From assembly GCA_964641875.1 (NCBI GenBank), contig CAZXLU010000001.1:1-57134 (forward strand): a stretch of 57,134 bases of DNA. Direction: 5' to 3'. Each line of letters begins with the position of its first letter. Position 1 is the first letter of the stretch. Positions 1-38,448 of this stretch are shown piece after piece. The translations under genes were made by a program, and so were the position numbers. Below the pieces are notes generated by a model. It had not been told where the DNA came from. It did not search any database and saw nothing but the letters and a program-made list of their open reading frames with translations. This DNA is from Candidatus Woesearchaeota archaeon (lineage in GTDB: Archaea > Nanobdellota > Nanobdellia > Parvarchaeales > Parvarchaeaceae).

Positions 1-596
1 ACATAATTATAAGCTCCGGAAGGCAAAGCTATAGATTGAGTATTTGCAAAGTAAGTAAATGGAGAATTTTGAACTGTTAATGTGGAATAAGTTCCATTGT
101 CATACTCTAAAGATAAATTAACCTTTCCAGTAAAACCTCCTACATTTATGTAAGAAGGCAGATTATCAGAATAATTTGCATACTCATATGCTAATGCAAC
201 ATTGGATGAATTTGTATAAAGTGCAAGGTTGGACAGACCAAAAGACTCATTTTCTGTTAGCATTGTATTTGCACCACAAGATGTTAAGTCTTGTCCTGCT
301 AGAAGTTTTCCGCCGTATAATGAACTTTGATATATTATTATTATACCATTAGATATGTTTATAGTGTAGTTTTCAAATGTAGTGAAAGTTAACAAAGGCA
401 AGTACTGTATTGTACTAAAACCATTTGAAGAAGCAAGAGAATTTATAGAATCGGCTATTTCATAGCAAATACTATTCATCTTTGAAATAGTAGGATTACC
501 TGCTGAGATGTGAGCGAAGAAGACGGCTATGAAAGCTATTAAAGCCAATACAAATGCTACGTCTATAATAAACTCGAAAGAGAACTGTCCTTTCAT
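1..596 (-). CDS. Class III signal peptide (archaeal type IV pilin-like) protein; 3' end cut by window edge
   Basis: Not on ORF track. Reverse complement of 594-596 is ATG. Translation starts MKGQFSFEFIIDVAFVLALIAFIAVFF: a KG/QxSxEF prepilin-type cleavage motif followed by a hydrophobic helix. I checked the frame codon by codon and it stays open to position 3. Confidence 0.6.
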   Translation of the reverse strand, partial: MKGQFSFEFIIDVAFVLALIAFIAVFFAHISAGNPTISKMNSICYEIADSINSLASSNGFSTIQYLPLLTFTTFENYTINISNGIIIIYQSSLYGGKLLAGQDLTSCGANTMLTENESFGLSNLALYTNSSNVALAYEYANYSDNLPSYINVGGFTGKVNLSLEYDNGTYSTLTVQNSPFTYFANTQSIALPSGAYNY

Positions 597-1438: not shown

Positions 1439-2383
1439 ATGTTCTTTATGGGCATAAGAAATAAGATAAGCAAGAAAATAGATGATATAGTTGAATATTA
1501 TCTAAAAAACTACAAGAAGATGGTGTTTATACCAATAATACTGGTAATATTCTTCCTATCTTTTATAGGCTATTACTATAACGTACATGGTGAGCTTCTA
1601 AATGAAGGCATATCTTTAACAGGGGGTACAAATATCCTTATAAATACTAATCAAAGTATTTCGCCTACAACTTTAGCAAGTAATTTAGGTACAAAACTCG
1701 GTCAACCTGTAACCGTAAGCGTTGTGAGGGCGCCTTTTTCAAATACTATAACAGGTTATTCTATAACGGTCGGAAAGAACGTAAACACTACATTATTGCA
1801 ACAGTATATATCCAAAATAACTAAAATACCTATAAATTCTAAGGATTCGAGTGTTACTTTTGTAAGTGCAACTTTAGCACAAAGCTCATTATACAGCTCG
1901 GCAATATTGCTTTTAATAGCGTTCATACTTGTAGCAGCTGTTTCTCTGTTTTACTTTAGAAGTTTATGGCAAGCGTTTTCAAACGTGATAAGTATAATAA
2001 GCGATATAATAAACATAGTTGGAGTACTAGACATAATAGGTTTTTCGTTTTCAACGGCTTCAATAGCAGGTATATTAATGATAATGGGCTATTCTGCTGA
2101 CAGGAACATAATACTTGCAACAAATATACTTAAAAGAAGCGAGGCCAGCATGCACTACCGCCTAGCAAAGACAATAAAGACTTCTCTTACAATGGATGCG
2201 GCTGCACTAGTAACCTTCATAACCTTATTTTTAGGAACTGCAAATACTACATTACATGAAATAGCCATAATCCTTATAATAGGAGTAATATTTGATGATT
2301 TCACTGTATGGATCTTAAACGGATCTACTCAGCTTTACGGCCTAAAGTACAAAGAAGTAGAAAAGCAAGCAAGTAAGGTTTAA
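1439..2383 (+). CDS. secF: Protein-export membrane protein SecF
   Basis: N-terminal TM, an extracytoplasmic loop, then a C-terminal multi-TM block (GILMIMGYSADRNIILATNI) typical of the SecD/SecF family. One nt separates it from secD. Confidence 0.8.
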   Translation: MFFMGIRNKISKKIDDIVEYYLKNYKKMVFIPIILVIFFLSFIGYYYNVHGELLNEGISLTGGTNILINTNQSISPTTLASNLGTKLGQPVTVSVVRAPFSNTITGYSITVGKNVNTTLLQQYISKITKIPINSKDSSVTFVSATLAQSSLYSSAILLLIAFILVAAVSLFYFRSLWQAFSNVISIISDIINIVGVLDIIGFSFSTASIAGILMIMGYSADRNIILATNILKRSEASMHYRLAKTIKTSLTMDAAALVTFITLFLGTANTTLHEIAIILIIGVIFDDFTVWILNGSTQLYGLKYKEVEKQASKV

Positions 2384-2384
2384 T

Positions 2385-3962
2385 ATGGCAAAATCAATAT
2401 TTTATGACTGGAGGATAATTTTGATGATTCTTCTTGCAGTAGTATCCTTCCTAGCTATACAGCCAAATATATCCAATGTAAACGGGGCACAAGTGATTTA
2501 TATGCCTGTAAACTCATACATTGGAAATTTAAGTGCTAAGGGAGTTATAGGTTTAAAAGCCGGATCAATAATAACTGCTGTGGATGGAGTACCTGTCCAT
2601 AACATACAACAATTTTACACTCAATTAAACAAAAGTGCAATAGTTAATTCCTCTCTTAGGATAACATATGAAAACGAGATTTTTCCCTATATATATAAGA
2701 GCAATACAACTAATATCTTCGTTGAACCCAACACTACTTTTAATTCCTCAACGATAGAAACACAGAATGTGCCTTTTACGCACCTTAACTATGGTTTAGA
2801 CATAATAGGAGGAACACAAATAGAAGTAGTACCAAATTCAACTAGCTATAATTCAACTTTATTAAATAACTTAGAAACAACACTTTCAAAAAGATTAGAT
2901 GTATACGGGATAAGTGGTACCACCATAAATATAGTGCAGGCTTTATCCGGCAAGTCATTTATAATGATAAGTATGCCAAAAGTTGGCGAAAGCCAGGCCT
3001 TATCCTTAATACAAAATCAAGGAAAATTCTATGCAACTATTGGCAATTTCACTGTTTTCAACAGCAGCAATGCAAGTGAAAGCATACTTGATGTTTGCCT
3101 TTCTTCTGGCTGTCCATTTGGAGTATATCAAACACCAAGCGCTTCTAACGGTTATTCATTTCAATTTGGTATACAATTAGCCAGTGGAGCGGCGAAAAAC
3201 TTTGAGAAAGCGGTTAAAACGTTAGTGCCGTCTACTACAAATCCAGGTTACTTCAATAAGAGGATTCATTTGTACCTTAATGGAGTTCAGCAGGGCCAGC
3301 CTCTCTTGATATCAACAAATATCCTAACAAATTTCAATGGGGCCATAACCATTGAAGGCTCTGGGGCAGATGCCCAGCAAGCGGATTTAGACATGAAAAC
3401 TTTGCAAGCTATAATGCAATCTGGCAGTCTACCAGTTCCTTTGAAGATAGTATCCATAAGCTCTATCTCTCCAACATCAGGTAGTCAATTTATAAGTCAA
3501 ATTTATATCCTTCTTTTAATAGCATTCATAGTCGTGAGCATAGTTATATTCTTGAGATATAGGGATTATAAGATATCTTCTTTGATACTTCTTACAAGTA
3601 TAACGGAGATATTTATTGTCATAGGCATAGCTGCTGCTATACATTGGACTATTGATATTCCAAGTATGGCAGGTATAATCGCTAGTATAGGAATATCCGT
3701 TGACGACCAGATAATAATAACTGATGAGATGCGCAGAGGTTTATCACAGGCAGAGTATGCAGTTACAAAGAAGAGAATAAGCCGTGCATTCTTCATAATA
3801 TTCGTTTCATTCTTTTCGTTTGCAGCAATAATGTTCCCACTGTTATTCTCAACTGCAAGCCTATTTGCAGGATTTGCTCTTACAACTATATTAGCATCTT
3901 TAGTTGGTTTATTAGTTACTAGACCAGCATATGCTAGAATTATAGCAAGGTTGGAGGGCTGA
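2385..3962 (+). CDS. secD: Protein-export membrane protein SecD
   Basis: 525 aa. N-terminal TM, a large exported domain and a C-terminal TM bundle with GIIASIGISVDDQIIITDE, a SecD/SecF family signature. Confidence 0.8.
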   Translation: MAKSIFYDWRIILMILLAVVSFLAIQPNISNVNGAQVIYMPVNSYIGNLSAKGVIGLKAGSIITAVDGVPVHNIQQFYTQLNKSAIVNSSLRITYENEIFPYIYKSNTTNIFVEPNTTFNSSTIETQNVPFTHLNYGLDIIGGTQIEVVPNSTSYNSTLLNNLETTLSKRLDVYGISGTTINIVQALSGKSFIMISMPKVGESQALSLIQNQGKFYATIGNFTVFNSSNASESILDVCLSSGCPFGVYQTPSASNGYSFQFGIQLASGAAKNFEKAVKTLVPSTTNPGYFNKRIHLYLNGVQQGQPLLISTNILTNFNGAITIEGSGADAQQADLDMKTLQAIMQSGSLPVPLKIVSISSISPTSGSQFISQIYILLLIAFIVVSIVIFLRYRDYKISSLILLTSITEIFIVIGIAAAIHWTIDIPSMAGIIASIGISVDDQIIITDEMRRGLSQAEYAVTKKRISRAFFIIFVSFFSFAAIMFPLLFSTASLFAGFALTTILASLVGLLVTRPAYARIIARLEG

Positions 3963-6401: not shown

Positions 6402-6936
6402 TCCCTATATCTAAGCCGGCTTTTACTATTGATATCATCGCTCCCGGACGACGTTCTTCCAATTTTAGAATAAAACTAAGGATAGCATTTTCCATACCTT
6501 TCCTTTCTCTTTTTCCAATATCCCTTCTCTTTAACAAAAAAAATGAATAAATCTCATTTTCTGAAATATTAAATAAAGGACTAAAAAACCCGTCACCCTT
6601 TACCTTCAACCCTTTATTTTCAGAAAAAAGAAAAAATTTCATTACTTCGATGGCAAAGTCCTCTAAGGTGTATGACTTAAGCTTTATTTCTTCATTATAT
6701 TTATTATCTACAAATAAAAAGCTGAGAAAAGCATAACCATATTTATTTTCTCTCATAACTTTAAAAGTTTTACCTCTTAAGCCGTTAGAGATTATATTAC
6801 TTCTAACTCTCCTTATAAGCATCCTTTCAAAATGTTTTTTGCACAAGTGTTGTTTTAGATAATTAGAATAAAATACGGATTTCCTACCACAGATAGCACA
6901 GTTATTGATTTTATCCATAAATATTAAAATGCACAT
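6394..6936 (-). CDS. Zinc-ribbon protein resembling the N-terminus of TtuA/Ncs6 tRNA 2-thiolases; PP-loop absent
   Basis: CAICGRKSVFYSNYLKQHLCKKHFERMLIRRV matches the CxxC...LCxxHF N-terminal finger of TtuA/Ncs6. The position of SGGKDS reads ENKYGY. The protein is only about 175-180 aa. The true start may be MDKINN at 6918. Confidence 0.45.
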   Translation of the reverse strand: MCILIFMDKINNCAICGRKSVFYSNYLKQHLCKKHFERMLIRRVRSNIISNGLRGKTFKVMRENKYGYAFLSFLFVDNKYNEEIKLKSYTLEDFAIEVMKFFLFSENKGLKVKGDGFFSPLFNISENEIYSFFLLKRRDIGKRERKGMENAILSFILKLEERRPGAMISIVKAGLDIGII

Positions 6937-6952
6937 ATCTAATATATCTAAT

Positions 6953-7669
6953 ATGGTTGCGAAAATTATAGTTATAATGAGCCCAAAGGGAGGAGTTGGG
7001 AAGACTACTATATCTGTTAATTTGGCGACTGCTTTGTCTGAACTTGGTAAAAAAACACTGTTGATAGATGCAAATCTAGAAACGCCACATGTTGCAGTTT
7101 ATTATGGTTTCGTGGGATTCAAGTATTCTTTCGAAGATCTGCTTGAGGGTAAAGCTAAAATTGAAGATGTAATATATAAAGGAGAAAACGAAAATTTTCA
7201 CTTATTACCTGCAAGAGTTTTGAAAGATAGTAACAAAGTTATAAACAAATTAGTAAATATAAATTCCTATATAAAAGAAGTAAACGAAAGGTATGATTTC
7301 ATAATAATAGATTCAAAACCTTCTTATAATATAGACTTCATAAAATTGATAAACGCTGCCAACAGTTTAATAGTAAGTAATCTTGAGATAACTTCGATTA
7401 TAGAAGCGAAAAAATTAAAAGAAAAACTTGATGAATTTAATATAAATGTGATAGGGTTAATTCTAAATAAATTTAACTATCATATAACTGAGCAGATAAC
7501 AGAAAATGAGGCGGCAGATATAACAAATATAAAAAACGTATGGAAAGTTAGAGAAGACAACATAGTTTATAGATCTCTTAAATATGGCGTGCCTGTTATT
7601 ATATCTGCACCAAAGAGCTGGATCTCTAAGGATATAGTAAAAATTGCTAAAGATTTAATTAAACTATGA
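6953..7669 (+). CDS. minD: MinD/ParA-family P-loop ATPase
   Basis: Deviant Walker A: IIVIMSPKGGVGKTTISVNLATAL. Walker B-like FIIIDSKP. I prefer the ATG at 6953 over the TTG at 6905 because it avoids overlap with the divergent gene. Confidence 0.75.
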   Translation: MVAKIIVIMSPKGGVGKTTISVNLATALSELGKKTLLIDANLETPHVAVYYGFVGFKYSFEDLLEGKAKIEDVIYKGENENFHLLPARVLKDSNKVINKLVNINSYIKEVNERYDFIIIDSKPSYNIDFIKLINAANSLIVSNLEITSIIEAKKLKEKLDEFNINVIGLILNKFNYHITEQITENEAADITNIKNVWKVREDNIVYRSLKYGVPVIISAPKSWISKDIVKIAKDLIKL

Positions 7670-7949: not shown

Positions 7950-8381
7950 GTGAAAGGCCAACAAAACCTTGAATTATTGCTTGTATTCAGCATAGCTATT
8001 GCAATAATAGCCAGCATATTCATAGTGATATTCTCTTTCTTTCCTGGATTAACAAGTTCAACCACTGTGCCTAGCTATTCTGGTTTTTCTGGTTTTTCTC
8101 TAAAACAAGTGTACCTCCCATCGAAATCATTGTACAACATTGAATTACAAAACATGCTTAATGAGAATATAAAAATTGATAAGATATCTCTTATAGTCAA
8201 TGGTGTTAACTATACAAATTTTGTATGCTCAAAAACATATTTACAAGCCTTACAAACAACGGAATGTAATTTATCTGAAAACTTTGGAAATTCGTTCACA
8301 GGTACAGGGTATATATACTACACACCCACGAATATATCCTTCTCTCCAACAATTGCATCGGGTGGTAATGTAATAAATTGA
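7950..8381 (+). CDS. Class III signal peptide (pilin-like) protein
   Basis: GTG start. MKGQQNLELLLVFSIAIAIIASIFIVIF has a KG/Q cleavage motif with Glu at +5 and a hydrophobic helix. At 143 aa it is in the pilin size range. Confidence 0.6.
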   Translation: MKGQQNLELLLVFSIAIAIIASIFIVIFSFFPGLTSSTTVPSYSGFSGFSLKQVYLPSKSLYNIELQNMLNENIKIDKISLIVNGVNYTNFVCSKTYLQALQTTECNLSENFGNSFTGTGYIYYTPTNISFSPTIASGGNVIN

Positions 8382-9407: not shown

Positions 9408-9569
9408 ATGAACAAAAAAGCTAGTGTAGAATGGAGACTTATATGGATAATATTGATAATAATTACCGCTTTGGCTGCTATAGCTTTAATAGTCTTTTTA
9501 TTTTATGCAAGTTCCCACAGCACATCCCCTTTTTCCTATTTTGGTAATCTATTAGGAGGTGGCTCGTAA
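9408..9569 (+). CDS. Mini single-TM protein (53 aa), related to the 14562-15207 family
   Basis: I prefer the internal ATG at 9408, two nt after the upstream stop. MNKKASVEWRLIWIILIIITALAAIALIVFLFY... resembles MNKKGVESYILLIIITLIVL of the 14725-14865 gene at its N-terminus. Confidence 0.45.
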   Translation: MNKKASVEWRLIWIILIIITALAAIALIVFLFYASSHSTSPFSYFGNLLGGGS

Positions 9570-10459
9570 TGGAAGAGGGAATACTACTTACAATAGTATT
9601 TGTAATATTCGTTATAGTAGCTGGCATAATTCTTTCAGTTGTTTCATTCTCCATAATAACCTCATTTGGGACTTTGAATTTTGGTATAAGCTGTTTCACC
9701 GCATTTACACAATATAAAATAGTAAATTCTTTCCTCGCACCTTTTACATCAGTAACATCTCTGTTTGGTTTTTCCAATATAGTTGTAAGCCCAACGCAAT
9801 CTATACAGGTGGAAAGAGACTGTTTGCAAAGTGCAAATATAAATGAAAAATCAGTTTCTGGTTTTTCTTCTCAATTTTATACAGAGGCTTCATCATGTTT
9901 TAGCCTTTTCTCTGGAGGCAATGCAGCTGTTGGCTCTGAGATAATATCTCCAAAAAACATGAACCAGATGTTTAATTGCTATCAAGGATCAATAATAAAC
10001 CAAAACAAAAATATAAATTATTCATCAATAATAAGTTATATTGATAGCAACTATAATGGTAGTTACCCTTTACAGATTGTATTTATAACAAACGGGAGTA
10101 ATGGCAAAGCACAGTATGTCTCCCCAACAGACAGACTATTAAATAGCACTTATTTGATTTCATATTTTGGATATCCGAATTCTGGGACAAAAAACTGTGA
10201 AATAAGTTTTTCTGATCAATGTAAATATGTTTCAAAATACGATCAGCCAATAATAAATAATCCTGCAGTGTGCGATTATTCAAATGAGACCATAAACCAA
10301 ACTAAAGAAACTGTAAGCTCCCTAAGCAATGGTAACCCATCAAATAATATAATAAATGAAACTTCTGGCTGCAATTACTACGTTCCTCTATGTGGACAAT
10401 TAAGTAACTATATGATTTATAGCCAGAGCAGAGTTTTTGTATGTATACCACAAAGTTAA
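9569..10459 (+). CDS. N-terminally anchored cysteine-containing surface protein
   Basis: 296 aa. N-terminal TM, 10 Cys and many sequons. Shares the [ST]SC[FW]..[FY].G.N block and the C-terminal R.V[FI][VY].C ending with the next gene. Confidence 0.5.
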   Translation: MEEGILLTIVFVIFVIVAGIILSVVSFSIITSFGTLNFGISCFTAFTQYKIVNSFLAPFTSVTSLFGFSNIVVSPTQSIQVERDCLQSANINEKSVSGFSSQFYTEASSCFSLFSGGNAAVGSEIISPKNMNQMFNCYQGSIINQNKNINYSSIISYIDSNYNGSYPLQIVFITNGSNGKAQYVSPTDRLLNSTYLISYFGYPNSGTKNCEISFSDQCKYVSKYDQPIINNPAVCDYSNETINQTKETVSSLSNGNPSNNIINETSGCNYYVPLCGQLSNYMIYSQSRVFVCIPQS

Positions 10460-10499: not shown

Positions 10500-11975
10500 A
10501 TGGCAGAAACACCTGGAGAGAGTTTCATATTTATCGTATTAGCGGTGATATTCATAATAGTAATCATAGCAATAGCCGGTTATTTATTACTTGTTGGAGT
10601 AAACCTTTCAAATAGCGGAATATGTTATGTTAGCTCTGAATTTACAAATTTCTATTATAATGGTTTGTGCGTATCGAATTTCTTCTGTTTAAGCAGTACA
10701 CTTAAAGCTTTAGGAGTGGCCCCTCCACTTTTTGGATGTACAACTTCAACTAGCGCTTACGGACCAGGAGCTTCGCCATCCCAAGCATTTTCATCAATAT
10801 CCACTCAACTTACCTCCTGTTGGAATGAGTATGGTGCAAACCAAGGATTAACTGTATTGCCTGACGGCCCAGCAACATGCGGAGTAACAGATATAAACAT
10901 CAATCAAAATATAACGATAAATAACCTTACACAGTACTTAGAAAGCAACGCTTATACCACTGAAATAAGCTGTTTAAACCATACTGCAGCACAATCTTGT
11001 GCTGACCCACTCTCTTCATCAAATCCGAATGGATTTACTTGTGATTTAAATAACCCAAGCGTTTGCGAAGCCCCATCATCAAATTACTTTAAATGTAGCA
11101 GCACCTCTGGTTATTCATTCAGCAATGGATATTCAAAGACTTACATTAATTTAACAGGCAGCAAGCCACCGACTGCTGCATTAAATCTAACAAGTGACCT
11201 TTGCGAAGCTTCCCAAGGTTGCTCATTTAATACTACATTAGATACTTGTTCAACACCAAGTGGTAATACCGCAGTGTGTACAGATTTATATAAAAATTTC
11301 TGTAATGGAAATAATTGCACGGTTGGGTTCGATAAAACCACTAAATCTTACGAATCACCGCCAGCATGTACATTGACAGAGCCAGTAAAAAGTACATCGA
11401 TAATAAATGTTTCGTATGCAGATTATCTGAAACCAGGCGACAACCTCATATTTAGCTACAAAAACCTAAGTAATAGTAGCACTAGTGGATTTGTACCTCC
11501 AAACAGCAGCAAATCAATAAATAAGGCACAAATCTACATTGTTTATTTAAATTCCTTAGTTGGGACGAGATTTCCACCTCACAGTATAAGCCTGCCAAGC
11601 GTATGTGAACCTGCGACTTTCCTAAATAATTATCCTACGGCAGGAATTGAATATGAATGTAGCAGAGCTGTTGTATCGGCTATAGGAGCGAAATTAGTGT
11701 CCCCTACAAACCCAGGCATAATTGTAGGAACGGCTCTGGCTGGTTTTACTGGAGCGGAATGCTTAAATAATACCTTATGTAAGGAGGATATTGCTCCAAA
11801 TGCATTGGATTACACTGGAAAATTAGCTTACGCATCATTCCGTGCTACTGGTTTAGAACAGTGTGCACAGTCTCTTTTCTATTATTTTACTGCGTCATTG
11901 CCAAAGACAATTGGAATATCAAAACCTAACTTTTTAGGTAGAAATGTGATTTATGTATGTGCTGTAACAAAGTAA
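10500..11975 (+). CDS. N-terminally anchored cysteine-rich surface protein (paralogue of 9569-10459)
   Basis: 491 aa. N-terminal TM (FIFIVLAVIFIIVIIAIAGYLLL), 24 Cys counted and many NxS/T. Ends in RNVIYVCAVTK, compared with SRVFVCIPQS in the preceding gene. Confidence 0.55.
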   Translation: MAETPGESFIFIVLAVIFIIVIIAIAGYLLLVGVNLSNSGICYVSSEFTNFYYNGLCVSNFFCLSSTLKALGVAPPLFGCTTSTSAYGPGASPSQAFSSISTQLTSCWNEYGANQGLTVLPDGPATCGVTDININQNITINNLTQYLESNAYTTEISCLNHTAAQSCADPLSSSNPNGFTCDLNNPSVCEAPSSNYFKCSSTSGYSFSNGYSKTYINLTGSKPPTAALNLTSDLCEASQGCSFNTTLDTCSTPSGNTAVCTDLYKNFCNGNNCTVGFDKTTKSYESPPACTLTEPVKSTSIINVSYADYLKPGDNLIFSYKNLSNSSTSGFVPPNSSKSINKAQIYIVYLNSLVGTRFPPHSISLPSVCEPATFLNNYPTAGIEYECSRAVVSAIGAKLVSPTNPGIIVGTALAGFTGAECLNNTLCKEDIAPNALDYTGKLAYASFRATGLEQCAQSLFYYFTASLPKTIGISKPNFLGRNVIYVCAVTK

Positions 11976-14529: not shown

Positions 14530-14561
14530 AATTTCTATTAGCTATCGAAAGTATAAAAATC

Positions 14562-14723
14562 TTAGTAAGCATTTTTAAAACCGGAAGTTATAGATGCACT
14601 TATACCTGAAAAGAAATTAGATATGTCTTTTGCCAGTGTAGACGGGCCTGCAAAGATGATATATACTAGTATCAGAGTTATCCCGAGTATTACAGCTATA
14701 ACATAAAACCATACTGATTCCAT
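14562..14723 (-). CDS. Mini single-TM protein s1 (53 aa)
   Basis: Not on ORF track. MESVWFYVIAVILGITLILVYIIFAGPSTLAKDISNFFSGISASITSGFKNAY. Its tail is paralogous to that of the 15034-15207 gene. Confidence 0.5.
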   Translation of the reverse strand: MESVWFYVIAVILGITLILVYIIFAGPSTLAKDISNFFSGISASITSGFKNAY

Positions 14724-14724
14724 A

Positions 14725-14865
14725 CTATACTTTTGGAACTGAAGGTATTAATTTATGCAAAGTTCCTGGAGAAAACAAAAACAAGTAAAAAATTATTATC
14801 AAGATTAAAACTATTAAAGTTATTATTATCAACAAAATATAGCTTTCAACTCCTTTTTTGTTCAT
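14725..14865 (-). CDS. Mini single-TM protein s2 (46 aa), class III-like N-terminus
   Basis: Not on ORF track. MNKKGVESYILLIIITLIVLILIIIFYLFLFSPGTLHKLIPSVPKV. One nt spacers on both sides. Confidence 0.5.
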   Translation of the reverse strand: MNKKGVESYILLIIITLIVLILIIIFYLFLFSPGTLHKLIPSVPKV

Positions 14866-14866
14866 A

Positions 14867-15037
14867 TTAAGTATAGCTGCTTACATTTAAATTGCTGGAT
14901 TTCGAAATAAAGGCCTTAAAAAGGTCAGTGAATTTATAAGGTGTGAAAAGCTCTAAAAATATTATGATTAAAAGGATGCCTATTACTATGAGTATTATAT
15001 ATAGAAAAACACCACTAACGACTCCTTTGCTTTTCAT
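14867..15037 (-). CDS. Mini single-TM protein s3 (56 aa), class III-like N-terminus
   Basis: Not on ORF track. MKSKGVVSGVFLYIILIVIGILLIIIFLELFTPYKFTDLFKAFISKSSNLNVSSYT. Its start overlaps the s4 stop (ATGA). Confidence 0.5.
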   Translation of the reverse strand: MKSKGVVSGVFLYIILIVIGILLIIIFLELFTPYKFTDLFKAFISKSSNLNVSSYT

Positions 15038-15207
15038 ATCCCTTTACCGTAAAGCCAACTGAATGAGAAAACACTAGTTATATCTTTACCTATTGTAGAT
15101 CCTGCTCCTGAGAATATCAAAGCTATCACTATGCCTGCGAAGAGGACTATTATTGCCAGTATAATAGCTATTATCTCTGTAATCGGCATTTGTCCTTTAA
15201 TATTCAT
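15034..15207 (-). CDS. Mini single-TM protein s4 (57 aa), class III signal-like
   Basis: Not on ORF track. MNIKGQMPITEIIAIILAIIVLFAGIVIALIFSGAGSTIGKDITSVFSFSWLYGKGI has a KG/Q motif. Its start lies 2 nt after the stop of the 577-aa gene. Confidence 0.55.
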   Translation of the reverse strand: MNIKGQMPITEIIAIILAIIVLFAGIVIALIFSGAGSTIGKDITSVFSFSWLYGKGI

Positions 15208-15209
15208 AT

Positions 15210-16943
15210 TCAAGGTATAGTTCTAGGCGGTTTCCAATTTAGCAAACCGACCCTCTTCTTTAGTTCATCATAAATGTACATGGCATCTTTATTTGATAGA
15301 AACAATCCAGTTTCTAAAGCTGCTTTAATGCTTGAACGATTAAAACGTCTTGCATTTACAAGCATCTCATAAATTTCTGCTTCTGATTCTCCAAATACCG
15401 TTTTATGCTTGCTTTCGCCCTGAGAAAAACCGGAAAATGCCTTTGATATCCCTACAAAATCATCTTTAAAAGAGCGATAGATATCACTTATAGCATAATT
15501 TTTTTGTTGTTTCTTTGGTTCTTTCTTTTTCTTTTCCTCAGCTTCAGCTTCTTTTACGTATTTATCCAAATCTTCCTTTATAATGCTAAGGGACCTAAAA
15601 ACTGCTTGGTCAACAGCAGCAAATACTGTTTTTTGTATCTTTGCTGCATTTGCTTCTCTGTATAGATAAAACTCGTCTGGTGTAAAACAATAAGGAAACA
15701 AATTAAAACTAAGAGTACCCTCATAAGGAGGTTGTATAGGATCTTTACTAGGCTTCTCCTTAAAGTCCATTTTTAGTTTAATAAGAGAATATACAACAGG
15801 CCCATACTTTTTAACCCTGTCATATATAAAAGACCTTCTGTTTTCTTCATGGCCCCTAGTAAGGAGATCTCCTGCTGCACTTTTAGGATAGACATTTACG
15901 GGTATCTCAGGTCCTTTATTGCCAAAGAGTTTTGTGTATTCAACATTGTACTCTCCAATGTATGTTTTTTTAAAGCCTATAGAAGTAACAGAGAAAAGTT
16001 CGTTCTCGAATATATCTGGTTTTGAAGCCGCCGACATGTATGCCTCGGCATTTTTAGCAGTATTTAAACCCATTCTAGAACGCATTGCAAGGTATGTTGA
16101 AGCCCAGTCTACATATAAGTCAAATGACCCCATTTGACTTTTGAGATACTGCAGAAGCATGCTTTTTCTATTTCTTAAATCCTTTTCATTTATCTCTTTC
16201 CATTTTTCGTATTCTATATAACGATTTTTTAATATATTTTTATACTGCTCATTTCTGTTTATTTGATTAACTTCTTTTAAGCTTTTTACTTGGTAGAACA
16301 CTGATACTATGTCTATAAAACCCGGACCGCCTTGGCTTTGAGTAGGAGAACGTGAAAGAGCAGACAAGCTTGCTCCACCCTTTCTAGCATCAACAATATC
16401 AAGAAAGATTCTCTTAAGTGCTAATTCTGCTGCTTCTGCTTTTTCTTTGTTATTCTCCTTAATTTCGTCATAAAAGTATATATTCCTATCTAGTTCTTTT
16501 AGCTCAATTGTTGTAGCGATTAAAGATTTGAGTACTGCATTTATGCTTCCAAGTAATTGTATAATCCTGTCTTCAAGATTTTTTTGTTTCTCAAAAACCA
16601 TATTCATTAAAGAAGAAAGGGCAGAAGGATCGACTGATTCTGCAATTTTAAGACTTCTATAACCCCTTTCAGAAAACATCTGCATTACCGAGAGATATTC
16701 CGGCTGAAAGTGATATCTTTTTACAATGTCTTTTGTAAAATGATAACCACCAGGATTTCCTACAAAACCGGGATCTATAAGCTCTTCTGAATTTTTGTAC
16801 CTAAAATCAATTTTTCCACTATAATGAGTTTCTGCGCTTGAGCCTATAAATTCTAATTCGCTGATATAACTGTTTATCTCTCCCAGATTCGATCCGCTGC
16901 CTCTGAAATTTTTTGCAATTCTCTTGACATCCTCTATGTTCAT
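15210..16943 (-). CDS. Orphan 577-aa soluble protein, first gene of the mini-protein operon
   Basis: Long clean ORF with no TM segment and no Walker A. It has a coiled-coil-like central region and a KE-rich patch (EAEEKKKKEPKKQQK). I recognise no family. Confidence 0.7.
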   Translation of the reverse strand: MNIEDVKRIAKNFRGSGSNLGEINSYISELEFIGSSAETHYSGKIDFRYKNSEELIDPGFVGNPGGYHFTKDIVKRYHFQPEYLSVMQMFSERGYRSLKIAESVDPSALSSLMNMVFEKQKNLEDRIIQLLGSINAVLKSLIATTIELKELDRNIYFYDEIKENNKEKAEAAELALKRIFLDIVDARKGGASLSALSRSPTQSQGGPGFIDIVSVFYQVKSLKEVNQINRNEQYKNILKNRYIEYEKWKEINEKDLRNRKSMLLQYLKSQMGSFDLYVDWASTYLAMRSRMGLNTAKNAEAYMSAASKPDIFENELFSVTSIGFKKTYIGEYNVEYTKLFGNKGPEIPVNVYPKSAAGDLLTRGHEENRRSFIYDRVKKYGPVVYSLIKLKMDFKEKPSKDPIQPPYEGTLSFNLFPYCFTPDEFYLYREANAAKIQKTVFAAVDQAVFRSLSIIKEDLDKYVKEAEAEEKKKKEPKKQQKNYAISDIYRSFKDDFVGISKAFSGFSQGESKHKTVFGESEAEIYEMLVNARRFNRSSIKAALETGLFLSNKDAMYIYDELKKRVGLLNWKPPRTIP

Positions 16944-17059: not shown

Positions 17060-18145
17060 ATGCATCAAACTGAAAATATAAATCCAATAGAAGCGACTCT
17101 AAACAAGCTTTTTTCTACAATAGATGCTCTATCATCTAAGATTGATGAATTAAATGAAAGAGTAGATTATATGGGCTCTTTTATAGGGTTAGAGGTCGGA
17201 GAGGGAGAAAATGCCGAATCTGTTGAGCCTCCTGGACAACTAGCAGGATTATCATTTGACATATTAAATAAGATATTGACTTCTAAAGACGCAAATTCGA
17301 TAAGAGCTTACTTTTTAAGAGTATTAAGTCTCTTCAGAAGATATATAAAATCAATAATAATATTCGGAAGCTCAAAAACTAAGACAAATATGACTACCAC
17401 ATCAGATATAGACGTTGCATTTATAGTAGATGACACGGATATACAGAAATTCACATTAGAACAACTTAGGGATAGACTTTTTGCAAAAATGGCAGAGATA
17501 GCTAGGGATTTTTCAGATAAGATACACGCTCAAGCCTACCCATTATCTGAATTCTGGGGATCCATAATAAAACCCAATCCTGTTATATTAACCCTTTTGA
17601 GAGACGGTGTTGCAGTATATGACACAGGTTTCTTCGTTCCCATACAGATGTTATACAAAACTGGTAATATAATTCCTACTGTTGAATCAATAAACAACAA
17701 CATAGAAAACGCGGAAGGCCTTTTAATGCTTGCTGAAAACGTACTTACAACTAAATTAAGCTTAGATGTTTATAATGCAGTAGTAGCTGCTGGCCAAGCA
17801 CTTTTAATGGAATACGGGTATTTACCACCGGTTCCAAAAGAAGTAGCTAAGGAACTTGAGGAGATAGCAGTAAAAAAAGAGAAAGTTCTTGATCATGAAG
17901 ATGTCCAAAAGATAGACGAAATAGTAAAATGGTTCAAAAAGATAGACCATGGAGAAGTGAAAGAGATAACAGGCAATGACTTTGACAAGAGACTTAAAGA
18001 GGCAAAAGAAGTAATAGAAAAAATAACTGGTATAATAGATAAACTAAGAGAAAAGAAAGGAGAAGCTAAACCGGTAATAGACAAAGATTTATTAAAACAA
18101 GCAGACAAGGAAGTAAAAGACAAATACATACAAAGGGAGGCATAA
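17060..18145 (+). CDS. Pol-beta-superfamily nucleotidyltransferase-domain protein
   Basis: IIIFGSSKTKTNMTTTSDIDVAFIVDD is the GS...DxD minimal NTase signature. It is followed by a helical KNTase-C/HEPN-like region and flanked by coiled-coil segments. GGAGG lies upstream of the ATG. Confidence 0.6.
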   Translation: MHQTENINPIEATLNKLFSTIDALSSKIDELNERVDYMGSFIGLEVGEGENAESVEPPGQLAGLSFDILNKILTSKDANSIRAYFLRVLSLFRRYIKSIIIFGSSKTKTNMTTTSDIDVAFIVDDTDIQKFTLEQLRDRLFAKMAEIARDFSDKIHAQAYPLSEFWGSIIKPNPVILTLLRDGVAVYDTGFFVPIQMLYKTGNIIPTVESINNNIENAEGLLMLAENVLTTKLSLDVYNAVVAAGQALLMEYGYLPPVPKEVAKELEEIAVKKEKVLDHEDVQKIDEIVKWFKKIDHGEVKEITGNDFDKRLKEAKEVIEKITGIIDKLREKKGEAKPVIDKDLLKQADKEVKDKYIQREA

Positions 18146-20547: not shown

Positions 20548-22293
20548 TTAAGCAATGCTACCGAAAGAAACGGAAGGCATTGCCCCGCTTGGAGGATAAG
20601 ATCTCGCTATCAACCACTTAATATAGTTGTAATCATAACCACCACCACTGCCTGCAGCAACCATTAAAGTAGGGTAATTAAAAGCACTTGGAATACTACC
20701 ACTCATATCTAAAGGTATGTTAATATTAGAGAAGTTTTCTAATGAACTAGCTTGATTTATAACACCTGCTTCAGCTTGAGTACTTGTTGAGACAATTAAT
20801 TCTTCGGTATAAGTTTGCGGAGTAGTTGAAGGCAAGTTATTTACTGTTGATATTATCTTATTATCCTGACTATCTAAAATTACAGGTATATAACTTCCGC
20901 TACAATTCATACCGATTGGTTCAACCATCAACATTACAGAGCCACTAGAAGCTACATTGCCACCACCACAAGTTACAACAGGAGGACCAACTAGAGAATT
21001 AACATTTCCAAATAACGATAATATCTCCCCATCTGTTGGACTTGTTCCACCATAAAAATTCCAAGAGTATTCCACTATGCTTGGAATCTCAGGCATAGGT
21101 TTAGGAGGTAAAATATGAGTGCCTTCACTACCTATGTCATTTATCATCTCTATCCCTTGTGATGAAGGTGTTGGAGAAAAAGATCCACTAGTAACATAAC
21201 CAGTCCAACCATCAAAACCTGCACTTCCTAAGAAATCTCCATATTCTAAAAATACATCTTGTCCATCATCGTATTCTGCGTATGTAGAAGAAAGTTGAGG
21301 GGCTTCTCCCGTGTTTACCGTGTTTAAAACATTTTCATTCTGCGGGAAAAAATCCATATAAACTGTTGTTGAAGTAAAACTGCCCAATTTAAGCCAATAA
21401 GTTACCACTTGATTATTAGATGTACCATTTTCTCTCCAACTTGGGATTACAGTTGAATTTGGATACAAAAATTCTATGTTCTGTAAGTTAGAGTTTGCGT
21501 ATGAATTGTAATCCTGCATATTTACTGTTACTTCTTGCTGAAATGGATTTGGAGTTGCAGATGAAGAAGTTATAGTCAAAGGAACGTAAGCTATTGGTTG
21601 TTGAGCTGAAACGCATTGAGAGGCATAATCTCCAGAGCTTGAAGGCGTTACTTCAATAACATACTCGGGATAGTAAGCAGAAGCAGTTACTGATCCCGAA
21701 GCTGTACTTGGCGATGAAGAAGAAGTAGATGAGACTGTACTTCCAAGATAAACCCCGTTTGTTGATAAAACACTAATATTAAATGTAACTGGAGAAGTCA
21801 CTGGTTGAAAAGAGTAGTTATAAAATTCTAAATTGTATGATATTTTAGTGCCTGAAACACTGTAGGACTGGGAGATAAAAGAGATAGCAAATCTTAAGCC
21901 CAATACTACTTGCCCATTAACAGACTTAACAAATGCATCATACGTTCCTCCAGTCAAAGGTAGCATTCCAGATATATTTTCTGCAGGTTTGGCTACTCCC
22001 AATTCCGTAGTAGTCTGAAGTTTTATTATGTCACCACACAAAAAAGAATCTTTTTGCTGCAATAAAGGTATAGTTATAGGAAAAGCTTGCATAGAACCTA
22101 CTCCTTGAGAAGAAACGTAATCAGCCTCCTTTGAAATTGAACCAGCAACGTTCTTTATCTGACTTGCTGATGAACTTGATGAAAAAGAACCATAAAAAAG
22201 CATTACATAGATGAGAAAAGATGCTATTATAGCTACCCCTATTCCGATTATTATAACATATTCTGTCGAGTACTGTGCCTTATTTGATAGCAT
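20548..22293 (-). CDS. Large class III signal peptide protein with DUF2341-like and LamG-like regions
   Basis: MLSNKAQYSTEYVIIIGIGVAIIASFLIYV has A/Q cleavage and Glu at +5 followed by Tyr. There is a Ser/Thr-rich linker. NIEFLYPNSTVIPSWRENGTSNNQVVTYWLKLGSFTSTTVYMDFF fits the DUF2341 pattern (DiRF.d..g..l.y.iE.w......vWVk). It is followed by DVFLEYGDF...WTG. Confidence 0.6.
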   Translation of the reverse strand: MLSNKAQYSTEYVIIIGIGVAIIASFLIYVMLFYGSFSSSSSASQIKNVAGSISKEADYVSSQGVGSMQAFPITIPLLQQKDSFLCGDIIKLQTTTELGVAKPAENISGMLPLTGGTYDAFVKSVNGQVVLGLRFAISFISQSYSVSGTKISYNLEFYNYSFQPVTSPVTFNISVLSTNGVYLGSTVSSTSSSSPSTASGSVTASAYYPEYVIEVTPSSSGDYASQCVSAQQPIAYVPLTITSSSATPNPFQQEVTVNMQDYNSYANSNLQNIEFLYPNSTVIPSWRENGTSNNQVVTYWLKLGSFTSTTVYMDFFPQNENVLNTVNTGEAPQLSSTYAEYDDGQDVFLEYGDFLGSAGFDGWTGYVTSGSFSPTPSSQGIEMINDIGSEGTHILPPKPMPEIPSIVEYSWNFYGGTSPTDGEILSLFGNVNSLVGPPVVTCGGGNVASSGSVMLMVEPIGMNCSGSYIPVILDSQDNKIISTVNNLPSTTPQTYTEELIVSTSTQAEAGVINQASSLENFSNINIPLDMSGSIPSAFNYPTLMVAAGSGGGYDYNYIKWLIARSYPPSGAMPSVSFGSIA

Positions 22294-31052: not shown

Positions 31053-31124
31053 GCCTCCGTAGCTCAGCGGTAGAGCGTCTGCCTTGTAAGCAGAAGGTCG
31101 CGGGGCCAGCACCCGTCGGAGGCT
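31053..31124 (+). tRNA. tRNA-Thr (anticodon UGU) with non-canonical T-loop
   Basis: Hand fold. Acceptor GCCUCCG/CGGAGGC, D stem GCUC/GAGC, anticodon stem UCUGC/GCAGA with loop CUUGUAA, T stem GCGGG/CCCGU. The T-loop reads GCCAGCA instead of UUCRAAU. Confidence 0.7.
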
Positions 31125-33632: not shown

Positions 33633-35003
33633 TTATGCAAATGCTATTCCTACAAATAATGCTAATGTAAGGACCACTAGTATTGCTTCTTTTAGCCTCT
33701 GTTCTTTGTTAATACTTATTTTTGATTTTGTCTGTCTTAAAACGCTTGATATACGCATCCTTGAAAGGATGTTATAATAGAAAAATGTGGAAACTAAAAG
33801 TGAGAAAAACAGCAATATTACTATCGGGATATAACCACTACTGAAAAGAGCATAAAATATCAAAAGCTTTCCGAAAAACCCTATAGTCGGAGGGAAACCT
33901 GCAAGAGATAATATGCCCATAAAGAAAGCAATAGTGGCTATTTTTGACACACTATACATCTTATTAACATCCTTTTTATAGATTATTTTTCTTGACTCAA
34001 ATATGTCATAGGCAAGGAAAATCATAGCATCGGCTATTGCAAATGCAAATATATAAAATATTGCCGCTTCTACCCCTTTCGATGTTAACACTGCCAAGCT
34101 TATAAACGCAAAGCCTGCTTGAGATATGCTAGAATAAGCTAAAAGCCTTTTTACTCTATCTTGTACAGATGCAAGAAATGCACTCAGAAATATCGTCACT
34201 ATAGCAATTGAAAGGAATAAAACAGTTATAAAATAAGATGACACGGGCAAAGCAAAGAAGAATATTCTGATCATTGCAACTAAACCTGCAGCTTTTGAAA
34301 CTGATGAGATAAAAGCAGTAATTGAGCTCTTGGATGTTTCATATGTATCCGGTGCCCACATATGAAACGGAACAAGAGTTGACTTAAAACTAAGCCCAGC
34401 TACTACAATTGCTACTCCTGCTATGAATGGAATATATGATACTGAATGCAAACTTGAAAAAGACAATGTTCCAGAACCAGCATATATAATTGAAATACCG
34501 AAAATTAGGATTACCATCGATATTATGCCAGTTGACAAATACTTCACCGCCCCTTCCAAGGCTATCTGAGATTTATTCATATAAACTAAAGCATATGATG
34601 CTATTGATAGAAATTCTATCGAAAGGAATAATGATATAAGATTACTTGAAATTACGACTAACGTTGCCGCAAGTACTGCAGATATATAGGCAATATCTAA
34701 AACCGCGCTATGTTCTTTTTTATCAGACACTATAAATATGTATATGAGTAAAGATATGAAGAGCATAAATGAGGTTATAAACTGCGAATATTGCATTTCA
34801 GAAAACAAATTTATACTCATATTCCCATAGATTAAATCAAATATAAAGGAGATAACTAAGAATGCAATAGTAATGTAGTGTATAATATCTTTTCTTTCAA
34901 TTTTCAAGCTATGTCTTATAAAATCAACTATTATTATGAATATTATGCCAGCAAACAAAGCGTACTGTGGATTTAAATAATACATATCAAAGCCCTCCCA
35001 CAA
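33633..35003 (-). CDS. nuoN: NADH-quinone oxidoreductase subunit N-like antiporter subunit
   Basis: Polytopic protein. LSIEFLSIASYALVYMNKSQIALEGAVKYLSTG fits the NuoN pattern. An alternative start MYYLNP at 34985 would remove the 17-nt overlap with nuoM. Confidence 0.7.
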   Translation of the reverse strand: MWEGFDMYYLNPQYALFAGIIFIIIVDFIRHSLKIERKDIIHYITIAFLVISFIFDLIYGNMSINLFSEMQYSQFITSFMLFISLLIYIFIVSDKKEHSAVLDIAYISAVLAATLVVISSNLISLFLSIEFLSIASYALVYMNKSQIALEGAVKYLSTGIISMVILIFGISIIYAGSGTLSFSSLHSVSYIPFIAGVAIVVAGLSFKSTLVPFHMWAPDTYETSKSSITAFISSVSKAAGLVAMIRIFFFALPVSSYFITVLFLSIAIVTIFLSAFLASVQDRVKRLLAYSSISQAGFAFISLAVLTSKGVEAAIFYIFAFAIADAMIFLAYDIFESRKIIYKKDVNKMYSVSKIATIAFFMGILSLAGFPPTIGFFGKLLIFYALFSSGYIPIVILLFFSLLVSTFFYYNILSRMRISSVLRQTKSKISINKEQRLKEAILVVLTLALFVGIAFA

Positions 35004-36399
35004 GAGTTGTAATTAATGATGGAAATAATCCGATTAAAAGGATGAAAAACCCTAAGAAAGAAAATGTTATTACTTCCATTTTATTTATATCTTTCACATT
35101 TGACAATTTTTGAGGTATCTTACCAAAAATTGCTTCTTTCATAAACCTAAGGTAATAATTTGTTGATAACATTATTCCAAATATGGCAATAAGAGATATG
35201 CCTGCTATGGTGTAGCTTCCTATGAACACGAGCAGCTCTCCAGGGAAATTAGAAAGGCCTGGCACTCCAAGGCTAGCGAAAACTGCAAAAAATGTGAAAA
35301 ATGAAAGAAATGGCATGTTAGACATTAAACCTCCCATCTTTTTTGTATTATAAGTTCCGGTTTTTTCAAGGAGCATGTGTGCTATCCCAAAAAGAAGAAC
35401 TATTATGAAACCATGACTAATCATTAATATAACTGAACCTACAACTGCTAATTGTACTGCAGAAGACACTCCTATAAATACTAATGCCATATAAAACATA
35501 CTTGAATATGAGAAAAGCATCTTCAAATCTCTTTGCCCAGTAGCAGTAAATGCTATGTAAACTGCAGAAAATACACCAAGCGCTATTAAAGGTATACGCA
35601 AGTTAATAAGGACATTCCTAAATAAACCAAATCCAAATAGGATAAAAGCAAATCCGCCAAGTTTAGAAAGCATTCCTGATAAAAGCATTGTACCTGCTGA
35701 AGGAGAATAGTAATATGAATCTGGAAGCCATTCATGCAATGGGAACAAAGGCATTTTTATCATTACTGTTATCAAAAGAAGGAAAAATGAGACATATTCA
35801 ATGTATGATGGAAGTGAAGACATTTTTGAAGCTATCACATTAAAGTTGAAACTTCCAGTATATATGAACAAAAGGATGAAAACTGCTAGAAGAGTAAGAC
35901 TGCCAAATTGTGTAAAAACCAAAAATTTCATTCCAGCTTTCTCTGGTTTATTTCCTTTACCCCAAAAACTTGTAATGAAAAACAACCCTAATACTGCCAG
36001 TTCCCAGAATAAAAAGAACATTATTAAATTTACAGATAGGAAAACTCCTATGACAGATAAATAAACAACCAGATAGAAAAGATAAAAGAGAGATTTACTC
36101 CCTTTTATTTCCTTCTTTGCAAATAAAAGAATTGGTATGGGTAGAACTATTCCTAAAAATAGGAATGGTAGAGTTATAAAACTTGAAGTGAATGAAACCG
36201 AAAAGCTTATTGAACTATTTATTATAAGATTGAAGTTAGAGAAACCAAAAATTAAACCAAGGGAAAAGATAACTGCATTAACAATCATCGCTGAAAAAAC
36301 AATTATTTCGTCCGAAATTTTATTTCTTATAATTCTTTTAAATAACAACAATGCTATCCCAATAATCGGAACAATGAAAAGATATAAGAAGCTTATCAT
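34987..36399 (-). CDS. nuoM: NADH-quinone oxidoreductase subunit M
   Basis: FWELAVLGLFFITSFWGKGNKPEKAGMKFLVFTQFGSL fits the NuoM signature (FE...WG...A..KF..YT..GS). Confidence 0.75.
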   Translation of the reverse strand: MISFLYLFIVPIIGIALLLFKRIIRNKISDEIIVFSAMIVNAVIFSLGLIFGFSNFNLIINSSISFSVSFTSSFITLPFLFLGIVLPIPILLFAKKEIKGSKSLFYLFYLVVYLSVIGVFLSVNLIMFFLFWELAVLGLFFITSFWGKGNKPEKAGMKFLVFTQFGSLTLLAVFILLFIYTGSFNFNVIASKMSSLPSYIEYVSFFLLLITVMIKMPLFPLHEWLPDSYYYSPSAGTMLLSGMLSKLGGFAFILFGFGLFRNVLINLRIPLIALGVFSAVYIAFTATGQRDLKMLFSYSSMFYMALVFIGVSSAVQLAVVGSVILMISHGFIIVLLFGIAHMLLEKTGTYNTKKMGGLMSNMPFLSFFTFFAVFASLGVPGLSNFPGELLVFIGSYTIAGISLIAIFGIMLSTNYYLRFMKEAIFGKIPQKLSNVKDINKMEVITFSFLGFFILLIGLFPSLITTLVGGL

Positions 36400-38144: not shown

Positions 38145-38145
38145 A

Positions 38146-38448
38146 TTAACCTTTGAACCTCCCTAATTTTGATATAGATAAAGATCCCGTTCTTCTTGAA
38201 AATATTACTATTAAAGCTATGAAAACTACAGTTTCAAAAACAACCATTATAAGGGTTATCAATGCATAGCTTACTCCATTTAATTTGGAGTAAAAATTAG
38301 CAGCTGATATAAAATTTATTATAGCTGCGTTAACAATTATCTCAGATGATATCAATATAGATATCCCTTCTCTTCTAGATAATATACCGTATAGCCCTAT
38401 TACAAAAAGAACTGTGGTCAAAAGAAGAAAATAAGATTCATTTATCAT
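38146..38448 (-). CDS. nuoK: NADH-quinone oxidoreductase subunit K
   Basis: 100 aa with 3 TM. LFVIGLYGILSRRE...SSEIIVNAAIINF...ETVVFIALIV fits NuoK, including the two membrane Glu positions. Confidence 0.75.
   Translation of the reverse strand: MINESYFLLLTTVLFVIGLYGILSRREGISILISSEIIVNAAIINFISAANFYSKLNGVSYALITLIMVVFETVVFIALIVIFSRRTGSLSISKLGRFKG

Follow-up and report, generated by a model that had tools for sequence, protein, structure and literature searches.

Candidate ultra-short type IV pilin-like micro-proteins in a conserved cassette of Parvarchaeum and its DPANN relatives

Very short pilins and the Parvarchaeum cassette

DPANN archaea such as ARMAN and Parvarchaeum, the latter a nano-archaeon of acid mines, need physical contact with a host, for which type IV pili are the foremost candidate structures. 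Class III signal peptides, the leaders of prepilins, end in glycine, alanine or serine at position −1, carry a charged residue at −2 in archaea, and place the cut site before the hydrophobic domain; substrates of the EppA-type peptidase have glutamine at +1 and glutamate at +5 and are cut at KGQV or KGQL sites (PMC4371748; PMC3875500). Two kinds of very short pilins lie closest to the proteins considered here. The mature Tad pilin PilA of Caulobacter crescentus is a 45-residue helix (PDB 8U1K), and the Epd pilins of Methanococcus maripaludis (EpdE/MMP1685, MMP0528, MMP0903 and MMP1283, of the DUF361/Class_IIIsignal family) are 67–76 amino acids (aa) long, 54–63 of them in the mature form, with leaders of 5–13 aa ending in glycine, glutamine at +1, glutamate at +5, and paralogs scattered in the genome (PMC3875500). 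The present analysis concerns a 57,134-nucleotide (nt) stretch of Parvarchaeaceae DNA (contig CAZXLU010000001.1 of assembly GCA_964641875.1, deposited as Candidatus Woesearchaeota archaeon), which in its full length is called the window. It carries a cassette of four tandem micro-protein genes, A to D, and a fifth paralog, E. With a probability of roughly 0.6, A–E represent a lineage-specific expansion of a DPANN-wide, ultra-short type IV pilin-like family whose members are prepilin-peptidase substrates and act as pilus-core or minor subunits. The five genes are as follows (arrow, predicted cut site).

15034-15207, minus strand: gene A, 57 aa; MNIKG as leader and QMPITE after it; hydrophobic helix of 24 residues; tail ending ...SVFSFSWLYGKGI; tail peptide DITSVFSFSWLYGK
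14867-15037, minus strand: gene B, 56 aa; MKSKG as leader and VVSG after it; hydrophobic helix; tail LFTPYKFTDLFKAFISKS...
14725-14865, minus strand: gene C, 46 aa; MNKKG as leader and VESY after it; hydrophobic helix; tail LFSPGTLHKLIPSVPKV
14562-14723, minus strand: gene D, 53 aa; begins MESVWFY..., leaderless in the window; tail IFAGPSTLAKDISNFFSG...
9408-9569, plus strand: gene E, 53 aa; fifth small paralog, MNKKA↓SVEWRLIWIIL...SPFSYFGNLLGGGS; directly upstream of a 296-aa gene

The interest of such genes follows from a gap in the Parvarchaeum inventory. In Table S6 of PMC10134863, a paper on Parvarchaeales genomes, FlaK (K07991), TadC (arCOG01812) and a VirB11-type pilus ATPase (arCOG01818) are present in ARMAN-4 and ARMAN-5, with K07991 FlaK scored 1 in these two and in all other columns 22 to 44, while both have a score of 0 for the recognised pilin arCOGs (02420, 03871). 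Parvarchaeum therefore appears to possess pilus machinery without annotated substrates. Both ARMAN genomes carry the cassette (L005, L008), and the cassette, gene E and their large pilin-like neighbours constitute concrete candidate substrates for that machinery.

The resemblance to Flp/Tad (type IVc) pilins is extensive. In both cases the precursor is about 50–60 aa long with a short leader ending in glycine, the mature protein has about 45 residues and consists of an alpha-helix without a globular head (the helix of A–E being predicted), and, for the wider A-like family, an ATPase of the TadA/CpaF type and a platform of the TadC type are encoded nearby. Unlike Flp/Tad pilins, however, A–D have no Pfam Flp_Fap match and no G/XXXXEY motif, which only the neighbouring 157-aa protein shows, with its KG↓ASGIEY; the leader is only 3–10 residues long, the archaeal host has no outer-membrane components, and there are five distinct paralogs where Flp/Tad systems have one major Flp.

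The Epd pilins are likewise archaeal, very short and present as several paralogs. Gene A shares their KG↓Q site, and two further window genes (1-596 and 7950-8381) have KG↓Q..[FL]E. In contrast to Epd pilins, A–E are 10–20 residues shorter, have no DUF361 match, and have their acidic residue displaced from +5 in A, C and E; only a FlaK-type peptidase is tabulated here, with no EppA-type second peptidase known. An earlier note on this DNA, written from the sequence, had called the products far shorter than typical archaeal pilins. Pilins of 54–63 mature residues are already known (PMC3875500), and compared with these shortest known ones the products are shorter, but not far shorter.

A third comparison is with minor pilins and pseudopilins (GspH-K, FimU-PilVWX, CpaJ/K/L), which share with A–E the fixed row of four or five distinct, conserved pilin-like genes. 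In both cases larger adhesin-like pilin proteins are encoded alongside, and a priming or tip role would be analogous (PMC13170226). Whereas minor pilins make their contacts through globular domains, the tails of A–E span only about 20 residues, such that a complex would need to be built from helices alone. Finally, in passages of the review by Makarova, Wolf and Koonin (2019), diverse pilins are proposed to account for the unannotated proteins of DPANN type IV pilus loci, on the grounds of their gene context and signal peptides (PMC6393860). The specific family of about 45 residues is not described in those passages, and, unlike the "dark matter" pilins treated there, the cassette in Parvarchaeum is distant from the genes for ATPase and platform, so that annotation by context would miss it. 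Literature on BJBARM4/5 locus tags and small DPANN pilins yielded nothing specific, and we found no prior description of either the family or the cassette.

An A-like family beside pilus genes across DPANN

Evidence for a link to pili comes from relatives of gene A, the Parvarchaeum representative of a DPANN-wide A-like family. Searched against a collection of 5.8 billion proteins, the A profile retrieved only 38 clusters, all from Parvarchaeota or "Nanoarchaeota" metagenome-assembled genomes (MAGs), and an exhaustive HMMER scan returned 17 representatives at E < 1e-3 among 1.84 billion proteins. The neighbours of these remote homologs are pilus genes. In a hot-spring bin (DRTY-6, L025), one strand encodes, in this order, a FlaI/TadA-type ATPase (Pfam T2SSE; NCBIfam E = 7e-31), a 675-aa polytopic protein, proteins of 174, 50, 367 and 673 aa, the A-like protein (51 aa), one further protein of 49 aa, a tandem of three pilin-like proteins each about 155 aa long, more pilin-like proteins, and a 2777-aa PKD/beta-propeller protein. 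The 673-aa protein, which precedes the A-like gene, is homologous to a 491-aa protein of the window (pairwise E = 1e-8); between the 296-aa protein of the window and the 367-aa protein of the bin, BLASTP detected no similarity. In three further loci (L026, L027, L028), a polytopic protein of about 720 aa is followed by an A-like micro-protein and then by a row of proteins with K-G/A leaders, and L028 also encodes a T2SSE/FlaI-type ATPase. The polytopic proteins of all four loci are mutual homologs, 30–55% identical over their full length.

These polytopic proteins served as anchors for a survey of 80 loci (L029-L108), the best of at least 570, drawn from Woese-, Pace-, Nano- and Parvarchaeota. 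Hidden Markov models (HMMs) of the families were scanned over the 4143 small open reading frames (ORFs) of these loci, an A-like call being made at E < 0.01. An A-like ORF was found in 55 of the 80, with E-values down to 1e-18. Most lie downstream of the anchor on the same strand (43), the others upstream and divergent (12); 42 are within 2 kb of the anchor and 19 within 500 nt. The C profile, for its part, matches ORFs of about 40 aa right after the platform gene in about ten of the 80 loci.

The A-like family is linked to genes of the pilus machinery, namely the ATPase and the platform-like protein, and its membership in a type IV pilus system is highly probable. In most of the DPANN pilus loci sampled, an unannotated family of about 45 residues thus accompanies the platform gene. 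It is short enough for default ORF cut-offs to miss, and has no Pfam or NCBIfam profile. Should its members prove to be filament subunits, no shorter archaeal pilins would be known; they would also be structural analogues of bacterial Flp pilins and would bear on the relation of Tad pili to archaeal systems.

Two observations concern the surveyed loci themselves. With at least 570 loci, the platform-like protein (about 700 aa) is very common in DPANN, and a second, C-like micro-protein family of about 40 aa often follows it directly.

Leaders, predicted structure and a possible path to the pilus

An alignment of 40 A-like sequences shows lysine or arginine at −2 and glycine or alanine at −1 in 40/40, preceded by variable residues. 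An acidic residue falls at +5 in 23 of them and at +4 in a further 10, for a total of 33/40 at either position. The predicted mature length is 43–48 aa (52 for gene A of the window), and the C-terminus bears a conserved LRFG-type motif that corresponds to SFSWLYGKG in Parvarchaeum.

The window paralogs follow the same scheme. Every leader-bearing copy in all five paralog families has glycine or alanine at −1, and A, C and E have lysine or arginine at −2 in all genomes. In gene A, lysine at −2, glycine at −1 and glutamine at +1 are nearly invariant and the residues before them vary; leaders end in KG in gene C and in K[G/A]↓S in gene E. In Rehaiarchaeum all four cassette proteins begin M[K/R]G, and orthologs of gene D outside Parvarchaeum carry leaders ending in RG (L021), SA (L024) or KG (L023). 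The restriction of −1 to glycine or alanine in A–E agrees with the G/A/S that prepilin peptidases demand at this position, and with EppA substrates, whose sites read KGQ. The hydrophobic runs of 22–25 residues start 3–6 residues past this G/A, that is, after the cleavage site, as class III signals have it. The predicted mature proteins of the window are 41–52 aa long, and the AlphaFold2 model of gene A is a single long helix spanning residues 9–47 (predicted local distance difference test score, pLDDT, 75).

The likeness to class III prepilin leaders on which the earlier note remarked is therefore upheld by the −1 residue everywhere, by −2 in A, C and E, by all 40 sequences of the wider family and by the pilus context, but only in part for gene B, whose −2 residue is uncharged in 4/16 genomes. 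The suggestion that these are truncated pilins fares less well: it is unlikely, given a predicted mature length that stays constant across DPANN and the purifying selection described below.

On the pilin-like reading, the precursor would insert into the membrane such that the short basic leader stays cytoplasmic, and a FlaK/PibD-type prepilin peptidase would cut after [K/R][G/A]. The product would be a peptide of 41–52 residues forming approximately one long alpha-helix, with about 22–25 hydrophobic residues followed by a polar or amphipathic tail of about 20. A pilus ATPase and a platform of the TadC type, whose genes lie elsewhere in the genome, would then pull these helices out of the membrane into the core of a pilus or pseudopilus. 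Cleavage by the peptidase is probable; entry into a filament has about even odds, perhaps slightly better. As to their division of labour, we infer that A–E would be non-redundant core or minor subunits (base, tip or adaptor, in fixed stoichiometry) rather than interchangeable major pilins, a role favoured because five separate ortholog lines are kept beside three large Cys-rich pilin-like proteins. A bolder version, to which we give little credence, makes the A-like family the fibre-forming subunit of a DPANN host-contact pilus, an archaeal counterpart of Flp/Tad undetected by current models. Parvarchaeales would then have split it into five specialised paralogs, with D "pre-processed" to lack a leader and hence bypassing the peptidase.

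Conservation and paralogy of the five genes

A–D are real genes, under purifying selection, and paralogous to one another. The layout reported by the earlier note, four minus-strand ORFs chained by 1-nt spacers and one ATGA overlap, is borne out by the sequence and the ORF list: the stop of A and the start of B share ATGA, and the B/C and C/D spacers are 1 nt each. Gene A starts 2 nt past the stop of a 577-aa ORF (15210-16943), and its mechanically called ORF extends to a TTG at 15213. Each of the four proteins has, as the note described, one hydrophobic stretch (about 22–25 residues) followed by IFSG, LFTP, LFSP or IFAG. The ORFs had also been described as missed by the ORF track; public gene callers do call them, as "hypothetical protein" (e.g., BJBARM5_0302). 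The exact sequences of A, B and D are already in the public record as called genes, and their relatives are named only "hypothetical protein".

All four ORFs occur in unchanged order behind a homolog of the 577-aa protein in 16 Parvarchaeum-type genomes (L001-L016), which include ARMAN-4 and ARMAN-5, even though the 577-aa proteins of these genomes are only 69–77% identical to that of the window. The closest loci to the window are those of ARMAN-4, ARMAN-5 and related MAGs. Three more distant Parvarchaeales (L020, L021, L024) have A–D in order behind a 577-aa homolog of about 47–53% identity, with all four called by public callers, and a fourth distant member of the Parvarchaeales, Rehaiarchaeum fermentans (L023), has A–D in the same order. 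Altogether, the four frames are intact in 21 genomes including the window. Pooled ratios of non-synonymous to synonymous change (pN/pS) are 0.17 (A), 0.20 (B), 0.22 (C) and 0.23 (D), at a pS of 0.66–0.70, which is near saturation. Both the conservation of the ORFs and their order among relatives, on which the earlier note's reading depended, and purifying selection are thus evident.

Since transmembrane profiles can match through composition alone, profile comparisons among the paralogs were accompanied by shuffle controls, in which alignment columns were permuted globally and then, more strictly, within the leader, helix and tail segments. Profile–profile probabilities reached 95% for A and D, 96% for B and C, and 95% for D and C, and only 51% for A and B. 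Relative to the stricter within-segment shuffles, scores lay 8.1 standard deviations (SD) above for A–D, 9.4 SD for B–C and 5.2 SD for D–C; the A–B score was weak, at 2.8 SD. None of 50 within-segment column shuffles reached the real A–D or B–C score. Congruent with this, in local HMM searches each profile ranked its own orthologs first and the other paralog families next, with noise ORFs at E > 0.1. D is accordingly paired with A as its paralog, and C with B. The proposed origin by duplication is supported by all three lines of evidence, and the shuffles speak against compositional bias as the sole cause of the similarity. The motif said to be shared by the first and last copies is indeed present in A and D, although its alignment needs a one-residue gap (IFSGAGST vs IFAG-PST).

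Gene E, absent from the earlier note, lies about 5 kb from the cassette and is kept in 13 Parvarchaeum loci and in Rehaiarchaeum. Each of A, B, C, D and E is maintained as a separate, highly conserved ortholog line.

Pilin-like genes around the cassette

Several larger genes near the cassette have the look of pilins or adhesins. Three of them form a row behind gene E:

9569-10459, plus strand: 296-aa protein; one N-terminal hydrophobic helix, exterior rich in Cys and NxS/T; no Pfam match
10500-11975, plus strand: 491-aa protein; one N-terminal hydrophobic helix, Cys-rich and sequon-rich exterior; ortholog of 496 aa in L023
11957-12430, plus strand: 157-aa pilin-like protein, MCCNKVKG↓ASGIEYFIVIILL...; leader KG↓ASGIEY

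The 296-aa gene is syntenic with the cassette across Parvarchaeales, with orthologs in L023 (307 aa) and L024. In Rehaiarchaeum fermentans the whole set falls on one strand, in the order E (48 aa), 307, 496, 137, A, B, C, D, Gins51, helicase, with no 577-aa gene.

Three other ORFs of the window bear canonical-looking class III leaders and are candidate larger pilins or adhesins:

1-596, minus strand: pilin-like ORF, MKG↓QFSFEF; runs off the window start; no Pfam match
7950-8381, plus strand: pilin-like ORF, MKG↓QQNLEL; 143 aa, GTG start; no Pfam match
20548-22293, minus strand: pilin-like ORF, MLSNKA↓QYSTEY; 581 aa; no Pfam match

Just upstream of a tRNA-Thr and the 143-aa pilin-like gene, at 6905-7669 on the plus strand, lies an archaeal MinD/FlhG-like ATPase (TIGR01969, E = 6e-45). 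In related MAGs an FlhG-like gene is annotated beside a VirB11-type pilus ATPase (supplement, PMC10134863).

Filament subunits or other membrane micro-proteins

A number of observations weigh against the pilin-like reading. On the side of the leaders, gene D is leaderless throughout Parvarchaeum, gene B has asparagine or serine in place of a charged −2 residue in 4/16 genomes, and the acidic residue stands at +6 in A, +2 in C and +3 in E, not at +5, and is missing altogether from B. A basic N-terminus followed by a transmembrane helix is, moreover, generic for any single-pass membrane protein with its N-terminus inside. On the side of homology, A–D match none of the Pfam Class_IIIsignal, Flp_Fap or archaeal pilin N-terminal models, nor any NCBIfam model, even at E = 10. 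A sequence search of the PDB with the A profile returned nothing significant (Tad PilA 8U1K came up only at E = 1, which is not evidence), and Foldseek matched the gene A model to nothing in the PDB. The strong sequence conservation of A–D is unusual for exposed pilins. As for the genomic setting, no pilus ATPase, platform or peptidase gene was found in the 57-kb window, and in Parvarchaeum the cassette has unrelated genes on both flanks, the 577-aa gene on one and Gins51/Hef on the other. Elsewhere in DPANN, Pfam T2SSF and NCBIfam models fail to recognise the platform-like protein, whose identity as the platform we infer from its position and its predicted 7–10 transmembrane segments.

The 40 A-like proteins, in the same vein, have no match to Class_IIIsignal (DUF361, PF04021) or Flp_Fap (PF04964) at E <= 1. 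Sub-threshold Pfam and NCBIfam matches of A–D (Oleosin, NEMP, FliL) were set aside as hydrophobic noise, and the matches of the remote A homologs to DUF6133, DUF7554 and FxsA, all under the cut-off, were dismissed likewise.

The chief competitor holds that these are uncleaved single-pass micro-proteins that are accessory to the pilus platform or stabilise the large pilin-like proteins, and are never extruded. We consider it unlikely, yet it accounts for the linkage to pilus loci as well as the pilin-like reading does, and it would readily explain why an A-like gene is so often beside the platform gene (19/55 within 500 nt). The constant length, the C-terminal LRFG/SFSWLYG motif and the high conservation fit a component of the machine better than an exposed fibre subunit, and gene D works without a leader in Parvarchaeum. 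What tells against it is the leader itself: a strict G/A at −1, K/R at −2 and an acidic residue at +4/+5 make up a signature of peptidase substrates and of filament packing that a membrane anchor would not need, and the residues before −2 vary freely, as expected of a peptide that is removed.

Much less credible is the proposal that the micro-proteins have nothing to do with pili and are tied instead to the gene on either side of the cassette. Two features of these flanks need to be described.

15210-16943, minus strand: cytoplasmic protein of 577 aa with coiled coils; its gene ends 2 nt before A and does not always accompany the cassette
14552-14559, minus strand: TTTTTATA element, located in the 32 nt that separate D from Gins51 and some 25 nt ahead of the start codon (ATG) of the latter

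The 577-aa gene is probably co-transcribed with A in Parvarchaeum. Its 2-nt spacer to A recurs in all Parvarchaeum-type loci, and the cassette is always upstream of the Gins51-helicase pair, Rehaiarchaeum included; both facts lend this proposal what appeal it has. However, the 577-aa family occurs without the cassette in four loci (L017, L018, L019, L022) and the cassette without the 577-aa gene in Rehaiarchaeum (L023), and the remote homologs of A have no Gins, helicase or 577-aa neighbours, with pilus genes in their place. The D–Gins51 spacer also tells against it. The form ATTTTTATAC is kept in 16 of 17 genomes (the window and L001-L016), the remaining one, L014, having ATTTTAATAC. The element is likely an archaeal TATA box that would drive a leaderless transcript of Gins51; its conservation before Gins51 suggests that Gins51 has its own promoter and hence a separate transcript. 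Its T-run may act as a terminator and mark the 3′ boundary of the cassette transcription unit. A scan for bacterial sigma-70 promoters and terminators gave no more sites than shuffled sequence, and such bacterial models are uninformative for an archaeon.

A functional link of the cassette to Gins51/Hef was judged to be synteny only. The 577-aa protein as a core part of the system was likewise dropped, with no fold or family found and a linkage confined to part of Parvarchaeales.

The last alternative, that A–D are chance frames whose likeness reflects hydrophobic composition, draws on the AT-richness of the window (32% G+C), in which frames rich in Ile, Leu and Phe arise readily, but its probability is negligible and it is already refuted by the persistence of all four frames in 21 genomes with synonymous change saturated and non-synonymous change low, by profile similarity above composition- and architecture-matched shuffles, and by noise ORFs that do not match the family profiles.

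Other features of the window

The 577-aa protein belongs to a DPANN-wide orphan family of 58 clusters, also found in L017-L022 and L024. It has no Pfam, NCBIfam, PDB or Foldseek match, and its AlphaFold2 model (pLDDT 74) consists of long coiled coils and two beta-sheets. The constant neighbour of its gene is a nucleotidyltransferase of the Pol-beta type (17060-18145 in the window), to which Pacearchaeota-like 577-aa loci add an acidic protein of 133–198 aa and an AP_endonuc_2 protein.

Neighbouring genes of the window include those for TFIIB, Trm1, Gins51 and the Hef-like helicase. The housekeeping genes comprise complex I membrane-arm subunits (nuoJ/K/L/M/N-like; 33633-38921, minus strand), SecF/SecD (1439-3962, plus strand), and SMC with ScpA (44328-47648, minus strand), with a TrmB regulator and CDC48 nearby. 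At 31053-31124, on the plus strand, the Rfam tRNA model detects a second tRNA (58.6 bits) that ARAGORN did not report.

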